Origin: a virus
Lineage: Monodnaviria > Loebvirae > Hofneiviricota > Faserviricetes > Tubulavirales > Inoviridae
Reading direction: 5' to 3' (one strand)
Length of the DNA: 8,636 nt
IMG/VR virus record: IMGVR_UViG_2563366882_000001
The notes beneath the pieces were generated by a model, which saw nothing but the letters and a program-made list of their open reading frames with translations, searched no databases and was not told the DNA's origin. A program made the translations under genes and the position numbers. Of this stretch, positions 1 to 8,636 are shown one piece after another. Position 1 is the first letter of the stretch. Every line of letters starts with the position of its first letter.

Positions 1-15
1 TACATTATGCGCACC
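1..15 (-). other. dif: Partial dif-like XerCD recombination site (candidate attL), cut by the window edge
   Basis: Seen: reverse complement of 1-15 is GGTGCGCATAATGTA, identical to the first 15 nt of the 28-bp E. coli dif (XerC arm GGTGCGCATAA plus 4 nt of central region, recalled from memory). The XerD arm would lie left of the window. Confidence 0.6.
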
Positions 16-395
16 AATGGTAAGGATGGCAGAATCTGGCGGGAATCGTTGACACTGGGCGTCAACTGGCTACTATCGACAGTGATTCAAAATCATCCGT
101 TTCTCCAAACGAATCAGAATCAAATGTCTGTCAGCAGTAAGTGAACGGCCTGACCTCACCAATCAGGCCTGTTCATCCAGTTGCAGTTGGTAAATCTGTA
201 CCTGATACATGAAACCTTCCCCAGAAATACAGCCACAATGTCAGATAAGATGAACGCTGCCGCGCCGAATCAGCTATAACGCTCAAAATGAAAACTGTAC
301 GGCTTGGCCAACCCCGGACAGCAACAAAACGAGTTTTGTCACTGACCGGAGTTTACGATAACTTCGTAAGCATTAAATTTTAGCGGCTAAAAAGT

Positions 396-794: not shown

Positions 795-2060
795 TCAAAG
801 AGCGCGAATAATATGAGCGGTCAGCAGAACATACATAATGCGTTGCTCATTACTGTCAGCTTTACTCCTGAAAAGCCAGCCAATCACCGGAATTTTACTG
901 ATAAACGGTACAGAACGGTCAGCATTGCTGGATGATGAATCAATCAGCCCACCAAGTAAGAGCGTCTGGCCATCCTTAATCTGAACTGTTGTCTGTATCT
1001 GACGCTGGTTCGTAATAATATCAGATGCCTGGTCATCGTTGCTGATGGAATCAGCGCGGGTATCAATAGTAAGTACAAGCTGGCCGTTCCCCATAACAAC
1101 AGGCGTCACCTTCAGAGATACGCCAACATCATGACGTTCAATGGTCTGAAACGGATTATTTACCCCGGCAGATTCACCCGTAACTTTACCCGTGATAAAG
1201 GGTACATTTTTACCAACAGAAATATAGCCTGTCTGACCAGACTGGGTAAGAATCCGGGGCGTTGAAATCACCTTAGACCGGGAGTTACTCTGCACCGCAC
1301 GCAGGGATACGGCCAGAACATTACCATCAAAAATGCCAAAAGAGCCGCCGGCAGTCGACAATGCGCTACCCAATGCTGAAGTATTAAAGCCCCCCGCCAC
1401 CTTATGACCAGACGCAGAACCGGCAGCAAACGACAAATCAACACCATCGGATAAACTGGTTTCAAACATCAACGACTGAATTAATACCTGGTCACGGGCA
1501 ACATCTACCGAATTGATAAAATCCGTCAGAACGGGCAGCAGCTCGTCAGGCGCAGAAACAATCAGCGAGTTATTGCCAGGATAATCCACAACATTACCCC
1601 CGCCATTAGAATCCAGATAAATTTTAACCAGTTGCTGAACATCAGACGATCGAACTTTTGTCAGCTTAAAATTTCTGACAGTAAACTCCACTGGCGCTGG
1701 CTGATAAGATGGCTCAGACGGGAAAGAGTCATAAGACCGAATATCAGCATCATCAAGGTCTGACGCCATCTGTGATGGTAATTTTGACGGCAAAGAGACT
1801 ACTGCAGGATTACCCGAAAGCATGACAAATCCGTTAGCATTCAGTACAGATTTGAAGAATCTATCAATATTTGTGGGATTAACATCAGCATTAAATACCG
1901 TTACGGTTCCTTTAACATCAGGATTAACAATAACGGGCTTGCCAGTTTTTGATGAATACCACTGGACAAATGAGCGAACGGATGAATTATTCAGATTAAC
2001 AGTTTCAGCAGAAACGCAAAAAGAATAAGTGAATAAGATAGCAATGAAAAATAAACGCAT
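795..2060 (-). CDS. gIV: Phage secretin pIV (virion export channel), 421 aa from the internal start
   Basis: Long blocks of similarity to M13 pIV as recalled (e.g. GSFGIFNG..., VPRILT.SGQ.G.ISVG.NVPFITG.VTGESA.VNNPFQTIER, C-terminal YVL..A.I.RAL). Start set at Met32 of the track ORF (ATG 2060-2058): AGGAG SD 9 nt upstream and a signal-peptide-like N-terminus MRLFFIAILFTYSFCVSA. The 2061-2153 extension would overlap the gI 3' end. Confidence 0.9.
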   Translation of the reverse strand: MRLFFIAILFTYSFCVSAETVNLNNSSVRSFVQWYSSKTGKPVIVNPDVKGTVTVFNADVNPTNIDRFFKSVLNANGFVMLSGNPAVVSLPSKLPSQMASDLDDADIRSYDSFPSEPSYQPAPVEFTVRNFKLTKVRSSDVQQLVKIYLDSNGGGNVVDYPGNNSLIVSAPDELLPVLTDFINSVDVARDQVLIQSLMFETSLSDGVDLSFAAGSASGHKVAGGFNTSALGSALSTAGGSFGIFDGNVLAVSLRAVQSNSRSKVISTPRILTQSGQTGYISVGKNVPFITGKVTGESAGVNNPFQTIERHDVGVSLKVTPVVMGNGQLVLTIDTRADSISNDDQASDIITNQRQIQTTVQIKDGQTLLLGGLIDSSSSNADRSVPFISKIPVIGWLFRSKADSNEQRIMYVLLTAHIIRAL

Positions 2061-2067
2061 AATAATA

Positions 2068-2442
2068 TTACTCCTGGCAGGTGATGTTTTGTAAATAACG
2101 GCCTTTTCTGATAACAATTCGGCAGGCATCTTTAATATCAACGGAATAACCATCTTTAATTAAATCAAAATACTGGTACTTCATACCCTTAGCATCAACA
2201 AACGTAACGGAAACATCAAAACCAAGTTGAGAGAAAGAATTAATTGATAGTCTCGGTAAATCGCTGGTGCTGTCAGGAGTTACTGCCCTCACCTGTTCAG
2301 CATGAGCAGATTTAATAGCCGAAATCTCATCAGCATTCTTACCAGATTGTAGCCAGAAGCCAAGTCCAAGCCCCAATGCCAGAAATGAAAGCATTAATAT
2401 TAATCGGTTTGATTTTCGAAAGTAAATTTTCGTGAGGCGCAT
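2068..2442 (-). CDS. gXI: Candidate pXI: in-frame internal start within gI (124 aa)
   Basis: Inference by analogy with Ff pXI: internal Met begins MRLTKIYFRKSNRLIL... (M13 pXI begins MKLTKIYLKKFSRVL as recalled), followed by a hydrophobic segment. ATG at 2442-2440 verified in sequence. Confidence 0.35.
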   Translation of the reverse strand: MRLTKIYFRKSNRLILMLSFLALGLGLGFWLQSGKNADEISAIKSAHAEQVRAVTPDSTSDLPRLSINSFSQLGFDVSVTFVDAKGMKYQYFDLIKDGYSVDIKDACRIVIRKGRYLQNITCQE

Positions 2443-3162
2443 ATAATAATTAAACCCTTTGTTAACGGAAAACTGACCATGTGTAATAAATGGCGGCAAA
2501 AGCGAATAAGCACCATGCGGATAATTATCAGTAAAAGCCTGTTTTGTATTGTAGGCGGAATATAATGACTTTCCGGTATATATCCATTTATCAACAGTTA
2601 TTGAATTAACGTTGTCACCATATTTAACAATACCAAAGTGAACCTTTGGTAAAGAAAAACGAGCACCTGAAATTATATTCATGAAAGAACCAATAAATGG
2701 GATGTTTAACTTATCTGAACGACGACAATAAACAACATGCTCTGCAAGCGCCAGCCGTGCTTGCTTGTCCATAATCGAAATATCCTGAATCAGAAAAATA
2801 ATATCCCAGCCTAATTTACGGGCATGCAAAAACCAGTCAATAACTGGCTGTCTGTCTTTATCCCCCCACGAACGGGAATTAAACCAAGTCCCACATTCAT
2901 CAAGAACCAGTAGACCATTACGTGATTCATCATAGGAAGTATTGCCTACACCAATAGCCAGCAGATCATTTAATGAAGGTTTGTCAGGTACACGAATCAC
3001 GCGTGTTTTTTTCGCATAACGACCAACCATGGGCATATTATGTAGTTTAATATCTAGATTAGTGGCTACAGGACAGCCTTTAGCTAGTCTTTCCTGTATT
3101 CTGGCAACACTAACCAGTGTCTTACCTGAACCTAATTTCCCTGTTACGACATAAACCGTCAT
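2068..3162 (-). CDS. gI: Phage assembly ATPase pI (Zot-like), Walker A GKLGSGKT
   Basis: N-terminus MTVYVVTGKLGSGKTLVSV... and blocks GLLVLDECGTWFNSRSW, QPVIDWFLHARKLGWDIIFL, ALAEHVVYCRR closely match M13 pI as recalled. Start ATG at 3162 immediately follows the gVI stop. Confidence 0.9.
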   Translation of the reverse strand: MTVYVVTGKLGSGKTLVSVARIQERLAKGCPVATNLDIKLHNMPMVGRYAKKTRVIRVPDKPSLNDLLAIGVGNTSYDESRNGLLVLDECGTWFNSRSWGDKDRQPVIDWFLHARKLGWDIIFLIQDISIMDKQARLALAEHVVYCRRSDKLNIPFIGSFMNIISGARFSLPKVHFGIVKYGDNVNSITVDKWIYTGKSLYSAYNTKQAFTDNYPHGAYSLLPPFITHGQFSVNKGFNYYMRLTKIYFRKSNRLILMLSFLALGLGLGFWLQSGKNADEISAIKSAHAEQVRAVTPDSTSDLPRLSINSFSQLGFDVSVTFVDAKGMKYQYFDLIKDGYSVDIKDACRIVIRKGRYLQNITCQE

Positions 3163-3504
3163 TCAAATCACCTTGTTTGCATAATCAAGGAATTTTTGTT
3201 TTAAATCGAAAACAAAAACGCTAATTCGAGTAATCATAATGACATTAACACAGGCCTGAAAATGGTCTGGTAAGACAGATGCAATTAAATGTGAAAAATC
3301 AGCAGGAAGGCCATTGTACATAACCTCAGCAAGATATTGCATTAAGAGAGTGACAGTTGTTGTAATTAATGCAACTAATGCTACGGCTATCAATCCTGTT
3401 TTAGTTGCAAGGCGTGCGAGGAAGCTTGCCACATAGCCAATAAATAAAGGAACAAGCCCAATAAGAAAACGTAATAGTGCAGGAATACCTAATAATAAAG
3501 GCAT
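3163..3504 (-). CDS. gVI: Minor coat protein pVI (113 aa)
   Basis: [14 protein letters not shown]... N-terminus and FVFDLKQK motif match M13 pVI (MPVLLGIPLLLRFL..., FIFDVKQK) as recalled. AGGAGG SD upstream; ATG overlaps the gIII stop by 1 nt (TAATG). Confidence 0.85.
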   Translation of the reverse strand: MPLLLGIPALLRFLIGLVPLFIGYVASFLARLATKTGLIAVALVALITTTVTLLMQYLAEVMYNGLPADFSHLIASVLPDHFQACVNVIMITRISVFVFDLKQKFLDYANKVI

Positions 3505-4748
3505 TACTCACCTCCTTTACGAAGTAATGAGGTTAAAGACGTAAATACATACCAGAAGGTAAGGCAATAAAAAATCCATGAAAGCGCATCTTTGATAGTA
3601 AGTAATTTATCGCATTCAATATCAATCTGATAAATTTCACCGGGGAAAATAACAAGTTCAGAACAACCATTACCATTAGGTAAACTAGGGAGCATAGCAC
3701 CTTTATTCAGGAATGCTTCCCATAAAGCACCATGAGAATCTTTAGCTATTCCTAATTCGGATTCAGCCAATGTTGAAGCACTGTCTAATTCGGAATCCCC
3801 TTTCCCATAACGAGAATCACCGCCAGAAGGATCAGCAAAACGTCCGGCTCCGCGAGTAAGGTTATTTATAGCGTCACCAAGACGATTTATATTATTTTTA
3901 GTCTGTTCATCAGCCGATTTTTTATCATCAGATGAGGTGTCTTTTTCTGTTAACTTATCATGAATCTCACTGGCCATTTTAGGTGAAGCACCTTCAATAG
4001 CTGACTGAATATCTCCTTTGGTAATACTTGAGCCATTACCACCTGAGTTACCGCCACCTGAGTTACCACCGCCTGTATCACCTCCTCCAGTATCACCACC
4101 CCCCGTATCCCCGCCTCCAGTATCCCCACCATCGCCAGCAGGAGAAGAAGGCTTATCTGAAGGATCGGCTACGGTTCCGGTAGGCTTCCATGTCGCAGCA
4201 CAAACAGTGCCATCACCCTGGCAAACAATGACGCCAGTGGCCTCATATTCACAACCGTTATAATAAATATAACGATCACCATCATAAGAATAGACATTAT
4301 TAAATACACCTTCTTCAGGAGGTTTAGCTTCACAAATTTCTTCAGGTGTAGGCTCGGAGGGTTTTTCATCAGGAATAGAACGCTGAATATCACCGATAAT
4401 ATAAGCGGTTAAAGTCCAGTATTTATCTTTCTGGCCCGGAGAGTCGCTGTAAGTACAAGCGTCAGAAAACACAAGACGGAATTCAGAGTTAGGCCATACT
4501 CCCTCATAAGTTGGTTTAACCTGAGTAAAAACACCCTGAGCACTGTCTTTAGCCCCCTGACAGGCAGAAGCCTGCATAGCTGCATCAATATAATAAACAG
4601 TTTGTTTAGTGCCATCTTGGTTGGTTATTTGCTTACTTTCAGAATAGGCAGAGCTTTGAAAAGTAGATTTAGTAATGCTTTCCCATGAATCAGCATGTGA
4701 AAAAGAAGAAATAAGAATAGCGGAAATAATTAATATTTTCCTTTTCAT
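3504..4748 (-). CDS. gIII: Adsorption protein pIII (414 aa from the internal start): Cys-rich N-terminal domains, Gly-rich linker, C-terminal membrane anchor
   Basis: Signal-peptide-like start [19 protein letters not shown], multiple Cys, a [10 protein letters not shown] repeat linker and a hydrophobic C-terminus, as in Ff pIII. Position between gVIII and gVI. The upstream in-frame extension to 4883 overlaps gVIII and is rejected. No clear SD, so the start is moderately certain. Confidence 0.8.
4036..4135. repeat. Tandem, imperfect 15-bp repeats (about 6 units) encoding the Gly-rich pentapeptide linker of pIII
   Basis: Seen: units such as ttaccgccacctgag, tatcacctcctccag, tatccccgcctccag; they translate on the minus strand to [10 protein letters not shown] repeats. 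Confidence 0.8.
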
Positions 4749-4755
4749 AATAACC

Positions 4756-4785
4756 CGCTTTAATAAAGGGGCAACGAGTGCCCCT
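4756..4785 (-). terminator. Candidate intrinsic terminator between gVIII and gIII
   Basis: Seen: 7-bp stem AGGGGCA (4767-4773) / TGCCCCT (4779-4785) with a 5-nt loop; on the minus strand it is followed by a weak U-rich stretch (UUAUUAAA). Ff phages have a terminator at this position. Confidence 0.4.
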
Positions 4786-4794
4786 GAGTGAATT

Positions 4795-5037
4795 TTAAAC
4801 TGCTTTCGAAGAGAACTTTTTAAACAAACGAATGGCAAGACCCGCACCAACGACAGCGACAACAACAGGCCATACTTTTGCAATAAGATCGTTTGCCTGA
4901 GTCAGCAGTGAATCCATTGCCTGACCTGCATAGTCAGTGCTACCCGTTGCGCCATCAGCAGCAAAACAACTTGCAGAAACAAAAAGTGCGGTTGAAGCCA
5001 CAGCAATTTTAGATTTAATAACAGAAATGACTTTCAT
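4795..5037 (-). CDS. gVIII: Major coat protein pVIII precursor (80 aa) with signal peptide
   Basis: C-terminus [16 protein letters not shown] matches the IKe-type major coat protein as recalled (M13: GIKLFKKFTSKAS). N-terminal signal peptide ends ...SASCFA before ADGATG. GGAG SD upstream. Confidence 0.9.
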
Positions 5038-5066
5038 ATAAATAACTCCATTTAAGTTAGGTTTTA

Positions 5067-5162
5067 TTACATTAATCGGTCAGATAATGTTTTAAACGAA
5101 CCGACCGCATAGAAAAGGGCAAATCCTAAGGTATAAGCCCCGAAGAAATACACAATATACAT
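5067..5162 (-). CDS. gIX: Candidate minor coat protein pIX (31 aa, hydrophobic); not in the ORF track
   Basis: Hand-translated: MYIVYFFGAYTLGFALFYAVGSFKTLSDRLM. Its ATG overlaps the gVII stop (TAATG), as gVII/gIX do in Ff; size and position match M13 pIX (32 aa). Confidence 0.55.
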   Translation of the reverse strand: MYIVYFFGAYTLGFALFYAVGSFKTLSDRLM

Positions 5163-5248
5163 TAACGAATGACACCTGCGGTAATAGCACCAAGACCAAA
5201 AGAAATAACAATGCCGGATGCTATTAATATTTGAATAACATCATCCAT
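5162..5248 (-). CDS. gVII: Candidate minor coat protein pVII (28 aa, hydrophobic); not in the ORF track
   Basis: Hand-translated: MDDVIQILIASGIVISFGLGAITAGVIR; resembles M13 pVII (MEQVADFDTIYQAMIQISVVLCFALGIIAGGQR as recalled). Lies between gV and gIX. Confidence 0.55.
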   Translation of the reverse strand: MDDVIQILIASGIVISFGLGAITAGVIR

Positions 5249-5250
5249 AA

Positions 5251-5568
5251 TTAACCTTTTATTTCAGTGATCCCACCATCTGATGAAATATTATAAGTCA
5301 CACCTTCTCTACCCTCCATTGACCAGACACGAACATATACAGGGATTTGAACTAATTTCCCCGTAAAACTATTGGCTTGATTCATGACTCCGGCGTTCAC
5401 AAGGGACTGTGATACACGAATAATTATTTGGTCTTGCTTAGTACCGCCAAAACCATCAGGGATCTCTAAACCGATACCAATTTCATTGTAATAGCCCTGA
5501 CCATTGACTTTATTACGCTGACGAGCACCAAGCATTTTACCTTTTACAAAAAGACCATAATTAGACAT
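5251..5568 (-). CDS. gV: Probable ssDNA-binding protein pV (105 aa)
   Basis: Called mainly from position (directly after gII, before gVII) and size; AAGGAG SD upstream of the ATG at 5568. Sequence similarity to M13 pV is weak by eye. Confidence 0.55.
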   Translation of the reverse strand: MSNYGLFVKGKMLGARQRNKVNGQGYYNEIGIGLEIPDGFGGTKQDQIIIRVSQSLVNAGVMNQANSFTGKLVQIPVYVRVWSMEGREGVTYNISSDGGITEIKG

Positions 5569-5579
5569 ATCACGCTCCT

Positions 5580-5894
5580 TTAATGCCAGTTACTGGCATG
5601 TGAAATACGGTTGTAATCAAAAATAAAACCTTTCTCATAAACCCATGTAGGGATTTGGGCTGGTTTAGCTTCAAGTGTTCTTACTAATGGAACAACATTA
5701 TTTGAATCAGGGGATTCACAATAAAAATTAATATCTATCCCGAAAGACAATAATTCTTTTCGGTGCCTGTAAAATGTTGGCTTTGGAAGCATTTCTTTCA
5801 TGTTTGCGCCCTGCTTCCACAGTAAATATGTTGATTGTATTTTTCTCGGCAGTTTAACTATTTTTTCATCGGTCAAAATGGCATTTTGATTCAT
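5580..5894 (-). CDS. gX: Candidate pX: in-frame internal start within gII (104 aa)
   Basis: Inference by analogy with Ff pX: internal ATG at 5894-5892 gives MNQNAILTDE... (M13 pX begins MNIYDD), with GGGAG about 9 nt upstream. Confidence 0.35.
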   Translation of the reverse strand: MNQNAILTDEKIVKLPRKIQSTYLLWKQGANMKEMLPKPTFYRHRKELLSFGIDINFYCESPDSNNVVPLVRTLEAKPAQIPTWVYEKGFIFDYNRISHASNWH

Positions 5895-6632
5895 TTCTAT
5901 TCTCCCTACATATTCAGAGAATAATTTGTTTGGAGTATCGATATTCCAGTTACTGCCAAGCGTAAGGTTTAAGTCAATTAATTCTGTTGTTCTTAGCGTC
6001 AATTCAATTCGTAATTTATCTTTAGACCAGTCAAGTAAGCCAGCTTTAACAAACTCTTCTGCTATCTGGTGTCCTTTTTTACCAGAAATATGCTCATCAT
6101 ATTTTGAATAAAATTTCAGGCTCCACCGCCGGGAGTTTTTCCCTAAGTAAACAGTTCCACCTTTACCACAGGCGCGACCATGGCGAGTTTTAGCCTTGAA
6201 TTCTGCGGCATATAGCCATGCGCGGACATTTTCCAGCGTTGATAATGAATACATGTAGTTAATATCAATGCGTGAGATCTTAAATTGCCCTGCCATTACC
6301 TGACGATAGGATGGTAGATCATGAGGAATATGAAGTAATGCCAATATTCTTGCGTAAGCGGTTAATACCAGCCCCTGCAAATCATCGGAGCCAATAACAG
6401 AATGCCCCTGAAGAAATTTTGACGGATTTCCGTCAATATAAAGATGAGTTGCCCGGCCTTCCCCGTCTGATCCAACAGATCGTACTTTCATTGTGGATTC
6501 GTATGAACCGCGAACGGTCAACCGCTTTACTGTTTCCCACTCCACTGCACCGTCAGCATCAACGCTGACGACACTACCGGCCGGTAACGGTCGGTGTGTG
6601 CAAGGAAGAATTCCGGTAAACCAGTCGATCAT
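5580..6632 (-). CDS. gII: Rolling-circle replication initiation protein pII (350 aa)
   Basis: N-terminus MIDWF... and the motifs NPSKFLQGHSVIGSDDL and C-terminal NNVVPLVR match M13 pII (MIDMLVL..., KASPAKVLQGHNVFGTTDL, CNNVVPLVR) as recalled. First gene of the minus-strand operon, divergent from the repressor-like gene. Confidence 0.85.
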   Translation of the reverse strand: MIDWFTGILPCTHRPLPAGSVVSVDADGAVEWETVKRLTVRGSYESTMKVRSVGSDGEGRATHLYIDGNPSKFLQGHSVIGSDDLQGLVLTAYARILALLHIPHDLPSYRQVMAGQFKISRIDINYMYSLSTLENVRAWLYAAEFKAKTRHGRACGKGGTVYLGKNSRRWSLKFYSKYDEHISGKKGHQIAEEFVKAGLLDWSKDKLRIELTLRTTELIDLNLTLGSNWNIDTPNKLFSEYVGRIEMNQNAILTDEKIVKLPRKIQSTYLLWKQGANMKEMLPKPTFYRHRKELLSFGIDINFYCESPDSNNVVPLVRTLEAKPAQIPTWVYEKGFIFDYNRISHASNWH

Positions 6633-6803
6633 AAGTAGTCACACCCATCAAAATATGTGTCAATAGTCATTTGTGAGCAGATTGAATGGTCACAATTTAA
6701 TATGCTCAGATCTGACAGTCAATACATTTGCAATGTTTAAATTGTCAGAACTGAGCATGTGATCAGACTATTGAAAAACCACTGTTAAGATGGAGCCAAG
6801 TAG
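6633..6803. promoter_or_regulatory. Divergent intergenic control region between gII and the repressor-like gene; candidate operators and promoters
   Basis: Seen: AT-rich 171-bp gap between divergent start codons with recurring TGTCA/TGACA motifs and inverted repeats. I could not place a convincing -35/-10 pair by eye. Confidence 0.5.
6702..6758. repeat. 16-bp inverted repeat (15/16) separated by 25 bp; candidate repressor operator pair
   Basis: Seen: ATGCTCAGATCTGACA (6702-6717) and TGTCAGAACTGAGCAT (6743-6758) are reverse complements with one mismatch. The left arm contains the perfect palindrome TCAGATCTGA (6706-6715). Confidence 0.6.
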
Positions 6804-7250
6804 ATGGGCAACAATGAGCATGAAGTTATGGCGGACAAACAGAGAGCAGAACGTATAAAAAAGGCAATTCTGGAACACTCGACTTATGAAGAACTGGCCG
6901 AGAAGACTGGCATTAGCGTAAGTACGCTGGTCAGGATAGCGTCCGGCAAAACTGAACCTAAATTCAGCGATATAATTCAGATAGCTAAAATTACTGGCGC
7001 AGATTTGAACACCTTAGCTTATGGCTATGCTCTTGATGTTAAAGAAGAAGCTACTGAGCGAAAGCTGATAACTTCTGCGGACGGATATACTGATGAAGAA
7101 ACCACGAACGCGCATAATTTCATCGTGTGGAACATCAGAACATTGGAGAAGCAAGATATTCTGGCACTTGCAAGGCAAGTTTCTGCATTAAGTTCATATA
7201 CTTACAGTACAAAAATGTTTATGAAAAAAGCATTGTCAGGCGAAGAGTAA
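6804..7250 (+). CDS. XRE-type helix-turn-helix DNA-binding protein; probable phage repressor (148 aa)
   Basis: Residues about 26-48 (STYEELAEKTGISVSTLVRIASG) have the typical XRE/Cro-cI HTH pattern. GGAG SD upstream. Divergent from the replication gene, as rstR is from rstA in CTXphi. Confidence 0.65.
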   Translation: MGNNEHEVMADKQRAERIKKAILEHSTYEELAEKTGISVSTLVRIASGKTEPKFSDIIQIAKITGADLNTLAYGYALDVKEEATERKLITSADGYTDEETTNAHNFIVWNIRTLEKQDILALARQVSALSSYTYSTKMFMKKALSGEE

Positions 7251-7260
7251 AAAGCTAGCG

Positions 7261-7313
7261 GTCTCAGGAATGAGACTAACGTGCAGTATTACCAACACTG
7301 CACGTTCTTTATT
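7261..7313 (+). terminator. Two adjacent hairpins after the repressor-like gene; the second is a candidate intrinsic terminator
   Basis: Seen: GTCTCA-ggaa-TGAGAC (7261-7276); then a 10-bp perfect stem AACGTGCAGT (7278-7287) / ACTGCACGTT (7297-7306) with a 9-nt loop, followed by CTTTATT. Confidence 0.55.
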
Positions 7314-7348
7314 GTGCGAATTTTGAACAGTGAAAAAGGATCAAAAGG

Positions 7349-7771: not shown

Positions 7772-7799
7772 TCAATAAAACGTAGAAGAGAGGAAACAT

Positions 7800-8075
7800 A
7801 TGAAACTGAATCCTGAGAAATACAATAGAAACATTACCCTGCTATGTCCTGTGTGCGGAAATACAGAGATGGAACACGAGGAAGAGTCTGAAGTCGTCAG
7901 ATGTGTAGGCTGCGGGAAAGAATTTACTAATGATGAGTTAATCCAAGAAAACGGGGTGAGTATTGACGCTCATGTAGATGAAATAAAAGAAGAGTTAACA
8001 AAAGACATTCAAAAACAGTTTAACGACATGCTCAAAAAGGCATTTAAGGGAAGTAAGAATATAAGGATCAAATAA
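7800..8075 (+). CDS. Hypothetical small zinc-ribbon protein (91 aa), C16-x2-C19 ... C35-x2-C38, acidic and Lys-rich
   Basis: ORF with AGGAAA SD upstream; two CxxC pairs spaced 15 residues apart. Its stop overlaps the next start (TAATG at 8073-8077). Confidence 0.6.
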   Translation: MKLNPEKYNRNITLLCPVCGNTEMEHEEESEVVRCVGCGKEFTNDELIQENGVSIDAHVDEIKEELTKDIQKQFNDMLKKAFKGSKNIRIK

Positions 8076-8554
8076 TGACAACAAGTGATGCCATCGCTTT
8101 AGCTGCGCTTGTAGTATCGATTTACACTATCATATCGTCAGAAATGAAATCGAGAAAAAGCGATAGAGAACAAAAGGTTATAAAGGATGAGCAAGACAGG
8201 TTACGTAAGTTGCTTCTGGAAAAAGAAACAAAGTCAGCAATTAATGAGATGAAAGCTGAGCTTGGTGCTCGCCTCGTAAAAATAGCCAAAAACAACTATA
8301 GGCTCAAGATATTTAATAGAGGGAGGGTTGAGGCTAAAAATATAGAGATTCATTTCCCTGATAACGATGGAAATGAATATCTTTCAATGCATGATGTAGA
8401 AGATAAATTTCCATATGAGGTATTACACCCGCAACATGGGATTGAAATTTTAGCGGGAATAAGCTTTGGAAGTAAAACTAAATACCGAATAAAACTCATA
8501 TGGGATGACAATTATAAAAGAAGAAATGAAGAGGATTTTTTCATTTCTATATAA
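8075..8554 (+). CDS. Hypothetical protein (159 aa): N-terminal hydrophobic helix, charged coiled-coil-like segment, C-terminal domain
   Basis: ORF translationally coupled to the upstream gene. Residues about 6-22 are hydrophobic (AIALAALVVSIYTIISS), followed by a K/E/R-rich region. Visibly AT-rich, unlike the structural module. Confidence 0.6.
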   Translation: MTTSDAIALAALVVSIYTIISSEMKSRKSDREQKVIKDEQDRLRKLLLEKETKSAINEMKAELGARLVKIAKNNYRLKIFNRGRVEAKNIEIHFPDNDGNEYLSMHDVEDKFPYEVLHPQHGIEILAGISFGSKTKYRIKLIWDDNYKRRNEEDFFISI

Positions 8555-8557
8555 ATT

Positions 8558-8584
8558 GGTTCGCACAATGACGTTATGCTAAAG
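8558..8584 (+). other. dif-like sequence in forward orientation (XerC-like arm, 5-bp spacer, XerD-like arm); possible attP component or chance
   Basis: Seen: GGTTCGCACAA TGACG TTATGCTAAAG versus dif GGTGCGCATAA TGTATA TTATGTTAAAT; 9/11 in each arm but the spacer is 5 bp, not 6. Confidence 0.3.
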
Positions 8585-8622
8585 AGGCCGCTGCGGGATT
8601 CGATTTTCGCAGCGGCCTTTTC
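8581..8622 (+). terminator. Strong rho-independent terminator closing the plus-strand cassette
   Basis: Seen: GC-rich 11-bp perfect stem AGGCCGCTGCG (8585-8595) / CGCAGCGGCCT (8608-8618) with a 12-nt loop, then TTTTC; an A-tract precedes it. Confidence 0.65.
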
Positions 8623-8636
8623 AACATAACGAGTCG
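8619..8636 (-). other. dif-like XerD-arm (reverse orientation) at the right edge, truncated by the window; candidate attR
   Basis: Seen: 8619-8629 TTTCAACATAA versus reverse complement of the dif XerD arm ATTTAACATAA (9/11, core AACATAA exact). Same orientation as the dif fragment at 1-15. Confidence 0.35.

Follow-up and report, generated by a model that had tools for sequence, protein, structure and literature searches.

A probable folded single-strand attachment site of the CTX type in an Escherichia coli filamentous prophage at dif

Introduction

Integration through a folded attP(+) is established in principle for CTXphi of Vibrio cholerae, with Val et al. 2005 reportedly the source study, and has been proposed for YpfPhi and CUS-1; the value of the present work accordingly lies in annotation and not in discovery. 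YpfPhi and CUS-1 are described as relatives of CTXphi (PMC4246890), and are termed enterobacterial IMEXs with a relation to it (PMC3442271). According to reviews, the attP of YpfPhi and CUS-1 has the features for direct ssDNA integration (PMC3089051, PMC4266046, PMC4246890), a claim that stands in these papers as a prediction from sequence. The encapsidated genome of YpfPhi holds a potential pair of XerC/XerD binding sites in inverted orientations, and its prophage integrates at dif, has an intact dif at its 3' end and forms tandem repeats (PMC4266046). The central region of dif itself is 6 bp (PMC3089051).

Here we analyse a stretch of 8,636 nucleotides from an inovirus (IMG/VR record IMGVR_UViG_2563366882_000001), referred to as the window throughout. 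An initial annotation had noticed a GC-rich hairpin between inverted dif-like half-sites at its right end, and had read it either as a folded attP in the manner of CTXphi or as a terminator next to attR. The folded-attP idea is supported by our results and is not new, having been published earlier for YpfPhi and CUS-1.

Results

The window as a prophage unit

The window is one circularly permuted unit of an Inoviridae prophage at E. coli dif. In a 99%-identical E. coli prophage, which adjoins hipA as two tandem copies, the copy-to-copy junction runs from window base 8636 directly to base 1, and this comparison of tandem copies, suggested in the initial annotation, confirms, together with the junctions to the host, that the attachment site continues across the window ends. 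Pfam recognises the gene II protein (Phage_CRI and G2P_X_C) and Zot in the window, and the RefSeq annotation of the 99%-identical prophage lists a secretin, an attachment protein, a coat protein, G7P, an ssDNA-binding protein and an HTH regulator, and no integrase. The large ORFs of the window could all be assigned (gene II, V, VIII, III, VI, I and IV proteins, the repressor and small cargo ORFs), and no phage-encoded recombinase is among them. All replication and morphogenesis genes lie on the window minus strand and, as the packaged (+) strand of filamentous phages has the sense of these genes, we infer from gene orientation that the packaged strand is the window minus strand.

At the DNA level 1-716, 5243-7329 and 8554-8636, which comprise the ends, genes II and V, the repressor region and attP, are YpfPhi-like with 80-100% identity (about 90% for genes II and V and the repressor region, 98% over the first 212 bases). 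Over about 800-5243, which holds the morphogenesis genes, no DNA similarity to YpfPhi was found; gene I shares 77% identity with Lineavirus I2-2. The genome is a mosaic of YpfPhi-like and I2-2-like parts, which fits the published UPPhi group, for whose phages the same mosaic has been reported (PMC7307601). The UPPhi paper mentions a copy of dif; the words 'attP' and 'hairpin' are absent from it and a folded attP is not discussed (PMC7307601).

Immediately upstream of attP, 7772-8554 forms a variable cargo slot, filled here by a 91-aa zinc-ribbon ORF ('ECs_2282 family' according to RefSeq in a relative, with a weak PADLOC match to PDC-S64, E = 4e-7) and a 159-aa ORF without a family match; the slot holds a single 1110-nt ORF in the 99%-identical prophage, and PD-(D/E)XK nuclease or STM4504 genes in other relatives. 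Gene II (minus) and the HTH repressor gene (plus) diverge from a region that holds the top inverted repeat of the window (6702-6758), a possible operator or origin element whose 27-nt arms are 81% complementary with 3 nt between them. An 82-aa ORF ending in FAWWW (396-644, minus) has no Pfam match, is labelled 'hypothetical protein' in relatives and shows about 80% DNA conservation in YpfPhi. The gene III protein contains a glycine-rich repeat linker at 4018-4263, where an 81-aa plus-strand ORF with PPPVS repeats is probably the mirror of this linker and not a gene.

Anatomy of the attachment site

With E. coli dif taken as GGTGCGCATAA TGTATA TTATGTTAAAT, the site resolves into two inverted dif-like sites, here called B and A, on either side of a GC hairpin (Table 1). 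Its order is GGTTCGCACAA-TGACG-TTATGCTAAAG, then the 11-bp hairpin, then on the reverse strand TTATGTTGAAA-11 nt-GGTGCGCATAA. Spelled out on the window strand, 8558-8636 is GGTTCGCACAA TGACG TTATGCTAAAG, AGGCCGCTGCG-GGATTCGATTTT-CGCAGCGGCCT, TTTCAACATAA CGAGTCG, in which 8585-8595 (AGGCCGCTGCG) and 8608-8618 (CGCAGCGGCCT) form the clamp stem, with 9 G-C pairs among its 11 bp. The minus-strand reading of site A is GGTGCGCATAA (15 to 5), TGTACGACTCG (4 to 1, then 8636 to 8630) and TTATGTTGAAA (8629 to 8619), and the window start, TACATTATGCGCACC, when read as its reverse complement (GGTGCGCATAATGTA), gives a perfect XerC arm followed by four bases of the dif central region.

Table 1. Parts of the attachment site, in window coordinates
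Feature	Position	Strand	Remarks
Whole site	8558-8636 + 1-15 (8636 joins 1)		two inverted dif-like sites around GC hairpin; 94-nt core
Stem-extending flank	8555-8557	-	pairs with 16-18 on phage (+) strand in MFE structure
Site B XerC-like arm, GGTTCGCACAA	8558-8568	+	9/11 against E. coli XerC arm
Site B central region, TGACG (5 nt)	8569-8573	+	bottom strand of predicted fold; CGTCA on phage strand
Site B XerD-like arm, TTATGCTAAAG	8574-8584	+	9/11 against XerD arm; bottom strand of folded arm
GC-rich clamp	8585-8618	.	perfect 11-bp stem with 12-nt loop; caps the predicted folded attP
Site A XerD arm, TTATGTTGAAA	8619-8629	-	9/11 against XerD arm; top strand of folded arm
Site A central region, XerD-side 7 nt, CGACTCG	8630-8636	-	part of the 11-nt TGTACGACTCG; from junction sequences
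Site A central region, first 4 nt, TGTA	1-4	-	same as start of dif central region TGTATA
Site A XerC arm, GGTGCGCATAA	5-15	-	0 mismatches to E. coli XerC arm; top strand of predicted fold
Flank pairing with 8555-8557	16-18	-	MFE structure

Much of this had been read correctly in the initial annotation: the forward dif-like sequence with a 5-bp spacer (8558-8584), the perfect hairpin and the reverse XerD-like arm all stand where it had placed them, and the complementarity that it saw between the flanks (CGTTATG/CATAACG) is real, belonging to an inverted repeat (8572-8595/8608-8631) with 24-nt arms, 88% complementary, that ranks second in the window in a repeat search. The extent it gave, 8558-8636, is right in its coordinates but incomplete, as the site also needs window bases 1-15. 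An ordinary duplex dif-like attR, which it had considered beyond 8636, is not what follows; the XerC arm sits 11 nt from the XerD arm instead.

Because matches to a single XerC or XerD arm occur near chance level (10 XerD-like against 6.4 expected, 2 XerC-like against 2.1 expected), composite sites were scored in the circularised window, with at most 2 mismatches in both arms and a spacer of 4-12 nt. Exactly two complete dif-like sites were found, inverted, 34 nt apart and both at attP; among 1000 first-order Markov surrogates, four had one complete site and none had two. Rfam gave no match to the whole window on either strand. A phage collection searched with the 117-nt joined site also gave no match, even at E = 1, and the YpfPhi-type attP is therefore absent from that collection.

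Predicted fold of the packaged strand

The phage (+) strand is predicted to form one unbranched stem-loop at -31.2 kcal/mol (z = -7.64), and its complement folds at -29.1 kcal/mol (z = -5.29), a difference of about 2 kcal/mol for the window's own variant, with both strands folding well. The attP(+) of CTXphi, run as a control with the same tool, gave -44.9 kcal/mol (z = -7.73) with a forked interior, and its complement -38.7 kcal/mol. In the predicted fold 8558-8568, whose complement on the (+) strand, TTGTGCGAACC, is the bottom strand of the XerC arm, meets 5-15 in 9 Watson-Crick pairs, one G.T and one G.A. The top strand TGTACGACTCG then lies opposite the bottom CGTCA; the 5-nt bottom strand is paired (2 nt towards XerC and 3 nt towards XerD in the consensus, helices 3 and 4) and 5-6 nt of the 11-nt top strand bulge out, a bulge that is present in every fold and that takes in part of 8630-8636 in all of them. 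Only TGT(A) of the top strand is common with the central TGTATA of dif. Beyond it the XerD arm faces the complement of 8574-8584 with 8 Watson-Crick pairs, two G.T and one A.C, and the 11-bp GC stem closes the fold.

Across variants the (+) strand is more stable than its complement in 16 of 17, an advantage that arises because three G.T wobbles occur on the (+) strand only. Folding of both strands, as proposed in the initial annotation, thus yields a stable structure with the XerC and XerD arms in register, and the folding strand is the window minus strand. Its comparison with CTXphi is favoured as regards the arms, which are in register on the packaged strand, but not as regards the fork, the predicted structure being an unbranched stem-loop. 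A forked CTXphi-like structure was not found for this variant, in which the MFE fold is unbranched, and is present in two relatives (L007 and L032). Arm pairing alone would not discriminate between models, because two inverted dif-like sites are complementary partly by construction.

Conservation among relatives

For comparison we used loci from genomes and IMG/VR that encode close relatives of the gene II protein. YpfPhi of Y. pestis (L005, the prophage of Y. pestis NCTC5923) has the 94-nt core with 100% identity, though the structural genes differ; the attP described here is identical to that of YpfPhi, and the feature is therefore already known. Diverged versions of attP occur in Brenneria, Photorhabdus and E. 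coli prophages with a different replication protein. The sequence 8558-8584, whose retention in related phages the initial annotation had singled out, is kept, with 100% identity in YpfPhi and compensatory changes in the diverged lineages.

Eighteen variants were aligned and scored against a structure that we specified, and standard pairs occupy 91.9% of cells. Pairs changed on both sides number 8, against 3.2 in shuffles, with 0 of 500 shuffles reaching the observed value and slid controls giving at most 2, a count that represents few independent events among closely related sequences. The XerC-arm position that is G.A here (pair 8-96) is G-C or T-A in other lineages, and one central pair varies between A-T, G-C and G.T. 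The XerD arm (helix 5) is paired in 93.4% of cells, with one compensatory change from T-A to A-T in Brenneria, and the clamp (helix 6) in 98%, with three compensatory pairs; the flank pairing of 8555-8557 with 16-18 (helix 1) is weakly conserved, at 73.5%. In the top strand, relatives hardly vary at the TGT on the XerC side, the XerD arm of site A shows almost no variation in the alignment, and the bottom central strand is 5 nt in 18 of 18 variants. Known Xer sites have spacers of 6-8 bp and, to our knowledge, a bottom-strand central region of 5 nt is shorter than that of any of them.

In L007 and L032 the intervening sequence is unrelated and branched (49 and about 55 nt) and the central regions measure 11/6 and 9/6, top over bottom; pairing of the two inverted sites is nevertheless retained, again with a bulge in the top strand, and folding favours the (+) strand by 4-6 kcal/mol. 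It is therefore the inverted-site arrangement that is conserved, and not this hairpin itself. L007 and a further contig, L008, carry this enterobacterial phage under the labels of Aerococcus and Candidatus Nanosynbacter MAGs; L008 also has a perfect E. coli-type dif and a hipA-side flank, and the labels look like bin contamination.

Beside hipA on E. coli chromosomes (L051-L053) lies a related attP of 83-87% identity that is better paired, at about -38 kcal/mol; the replication module there is in one case a diverged gene II (69% DNA identity) and in two a 'replication initiation factor' (Rep_trans-like), which suggests that the attP module has been exchanged between backbones. Decayed elements were also observed, in which window 8558-8628 (site B, hairpin and a portion of the reverse XerD arm) is kept at about 93% identity, an ISNCY transposase pseudogene and one cargo gene stand in place of the phage genes, and a dif or dif-like site lies at the opposite end (for example L003:3330-6110 on the chromosome of E. 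coli strain 144 and L002:288-3110 on plasmid pLD67-1-165kb). The cargo is SIR2 on chromosomes by hipA and a gene of the STM4504/CBY_0614 family on large plasmids, and a query with the joined attP matched 486 plasmid places in E. coli RefSeq. A wider reading, which we put forward only tentatively, is that attP could be a portable cassette moved among at least three unrelated Enterobacterales inovirus backbones (the YpfPhi/CUS-1 type, the I2-2-like UPPhi type and the type with a Rep_trans replication protein), that its conserved 5-nt bottom strand could constitute a Xer substrate geometry of its own, and that decayed copies could have fixed defence-type cargo (SIR2, STM4504) by dif and on about 480 E. 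coli plasmid loci.

Prophage junctions and the crossover

Single and tandem prophages alike have a perfect, regenerated dif (GGTGCGCATAATGTATATTATGTTAAAT) at their window-left end, and the hipA-side junction reads GGTGCGCATAA-TGTACGACTCG-TTATGTTGAAA, the sites with 11-nt and 5-bp spacers lying there as duplex. Where the host XerC arm starts with A, in L034, the host-side junction is AGTGCGCATAA and the regenerated dif has the phage arm GGTGCGCATAA; in Y. pestis, GGTGCACATAA stands at the host-side junction and GGTGCGCATAA between tandem copies. The locus of the Y. pestis array used here ends just short of the regenerated dif, for which L034 provides the equivalent evidence. With the host arm outside and the phage arm inside, the crossover therefore lies between the XerC arm and base 5 of the central region. 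This stretch coincides with the point of XerC action on dif, the boundary of arm and central region. The crossover with dif, which must fall in the zone 1-4, is bracketed by these differences between host and phage arms at the ends of the prophages of L034 and Y. pestis (L005/L006), and from them we infer that the XerC cleavage point is between window bases 5 and 4 of the minus strand.

The closest relative has tandem copies, as have other genomes. The chromosome of E. coli EC5502 (NZ_CP092647.1; L058, L059) has at least 11 tandem units about 8.31 kb apart, with a complete attP at each junction and many genes frameshifted; these units may be a truly large array or an artefact that replicative-form DNA produced in long-read assembly. 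Site B was also considered as a duplex crossover site and is ruled out, as tandem and terminal copies alike hold it internally and unbroken.

The same junctions would result if duplex DNA integrated through site A, and they would suit a VGJphi-type event in which the dsDNA replicative form recombines via site A alone, the hairpin is a terminator only and site B is a relic. Such a role for the hairpin is consistent with its position 30 nt past the stop codon of ORF 8075-8554 and with the folding of 8555-8636 (82 nt) as RNA at -39 kcal/mol, the stem being followed by UUUUC. In VGJ-type sites, however, the spacer is 7 bp (PMC3089051, Table III); in site A it is 11 bp, with 10 bp in a single lineage, and the duplex-site spacers of 5 and 11 bp both differ from the 6-bp central region of dif. 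Site B, moreover, is conserved with compensatory changes and an invariant 5-nt spacer, it is kept in inverted orientation in relatives with a different intervening sequence, and the wobble asymmetry favours the packaged strand, all of which argue against a relic and leave duplex integration improbable. Still less credible, and in our judgement very improbable, is that the hairpin is an intrinsic terminator of the reverse-oriented cargo genes flanked by functionless, decayed leftovers of earlier integrations: the GC-rich stem is followed by TTTT on the window + strand and decayed copies of site B and hairpin do persist by cargo genes on plasmids and chromosomes, but a terminator scan (GC-rich stem, short loop, at least 5 T in 8) does not call this hairpin with its 12-nt loop and only 4 T, the TTTT run belongs to the XerD-arm complement, two complete dif-like sites in 94 nt are far beyond chance, the crossover maps into the site, and the core is identical in YpfPhi, whose integration at dif following experimental infection has been reported (PMC4266046). 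The terminator next to attR of the initial annotation is thus less favoured than a folded attP, though the clamp may have a secondary role as a terminator for cargo genes on the window + strand.

Discussion

We propose that 8558-8636 together with 1-15 is the folded single-strand, CTX-type attachment site of a prophage at dif that uses the CTXphi mechanism, a reading that we consider likely and that brings together the anatomy, predicted fold, conservation, junctions and tandem arrays seen here. The features of a CTX-type IMEX that are present include two inverted pairs of XerC/XerD sites, arms in register on the predicted (+) fold, an incompletely paired central region, homology to dif on the XerC side only, the layout of the junctions and the lack of a recombinase.

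In the proposed model, the two inverted dif-like sites of the packaged (+) strand would fold onto each other to give a XerC-arm duplex, an 11-nt top strand bulging over a 5-nt bottom strand, a XerD-arm duplex and the 11-bp GC clamp. Host XerC and XerD would bind the folded site and synapse it with dif, after which one strand pair would be exchanged by XerC at the boundary of arm and central region, with the common TGT(A) stabilising the exchange. XerD would be blocked because the rest of the central region is non-homologous. Replication would then resolve the intermediate, a pseudo-Holliday junction, into a prophage with an intact dif at one end and inactive duplex sites, with 11-nt and 5-nt spacers, at the other. 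As the folded site is gone in the duplex prophage, integration would be one-way, and new phage genomes would be supplied by rolling-circle replication across tandem copies. For Xer binding, catalysis by XerC only, the ssDNA substrate and irreversibility, this model draws on analogy with CTXphi.

A widespread group of E. coli filamentous prophages, with relatives in Yersinia, Klebsiella, Brenneria and Photorhabdus, carries an attP that was earlier proposed to integrate as folded ssDNA and for which the support added here is computational. The analysis defines the parts of this site exactly, together with its strand, the zone of crossover and its need for window bases 1-15; in this phage group a folded attP is nothing unusual. 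Tandem arrays, and elements stacked at dif, would both be explained by integration that runs one way and regenerates dif, as would the cargo genes left by dif after decay of the phage genes.

Among described systems, YpfPhi and CUS-1 (E. coli O18:K1:H7) resemble this phage in integration at dif, in the intact dif regenerated at the 3' end and in tandem copies, and YpfPhi differs in its morphogenesis genes, those of this phage resembling Lineavirus I2-2. IMEXs of the VGJphi type are likewise filamentous phages that use host XerCD at dif without an integrase of their own, but theirs is a single site whose central region is 7 bp (PMC3089051, Table III), whereas here there are two inverted sites with 5-bp and 11-bp spacers. 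CTXphi has no sequence similarity to this phage outside the Xer arms, its replication protein is RstA and not of the Ff gene II type, and its arms are separated by about 90 nt in a forked structure, against 34 nt with one unbranched GC clamp here. Its attP(+) nevertheless shares the arrangement of two inverted dif-like sites with a long top and a short bottom central region, which in the passages on CTXphi in PMC3089051 and PMC3442271 measure 12/7 (bottom 6-7 nt) against 11/5 here. The two sites also share a position between the end of the morphogenesis genes and a reverse-oriented repressor, as well as similar fold z-scores. Finally, in the accounts of CTXphi that those passages give, only the XerC side (TGT) is homologous to dif, as here, and integration regenerates dif and leaves inactive sites, as we see at the ends of these prophages.
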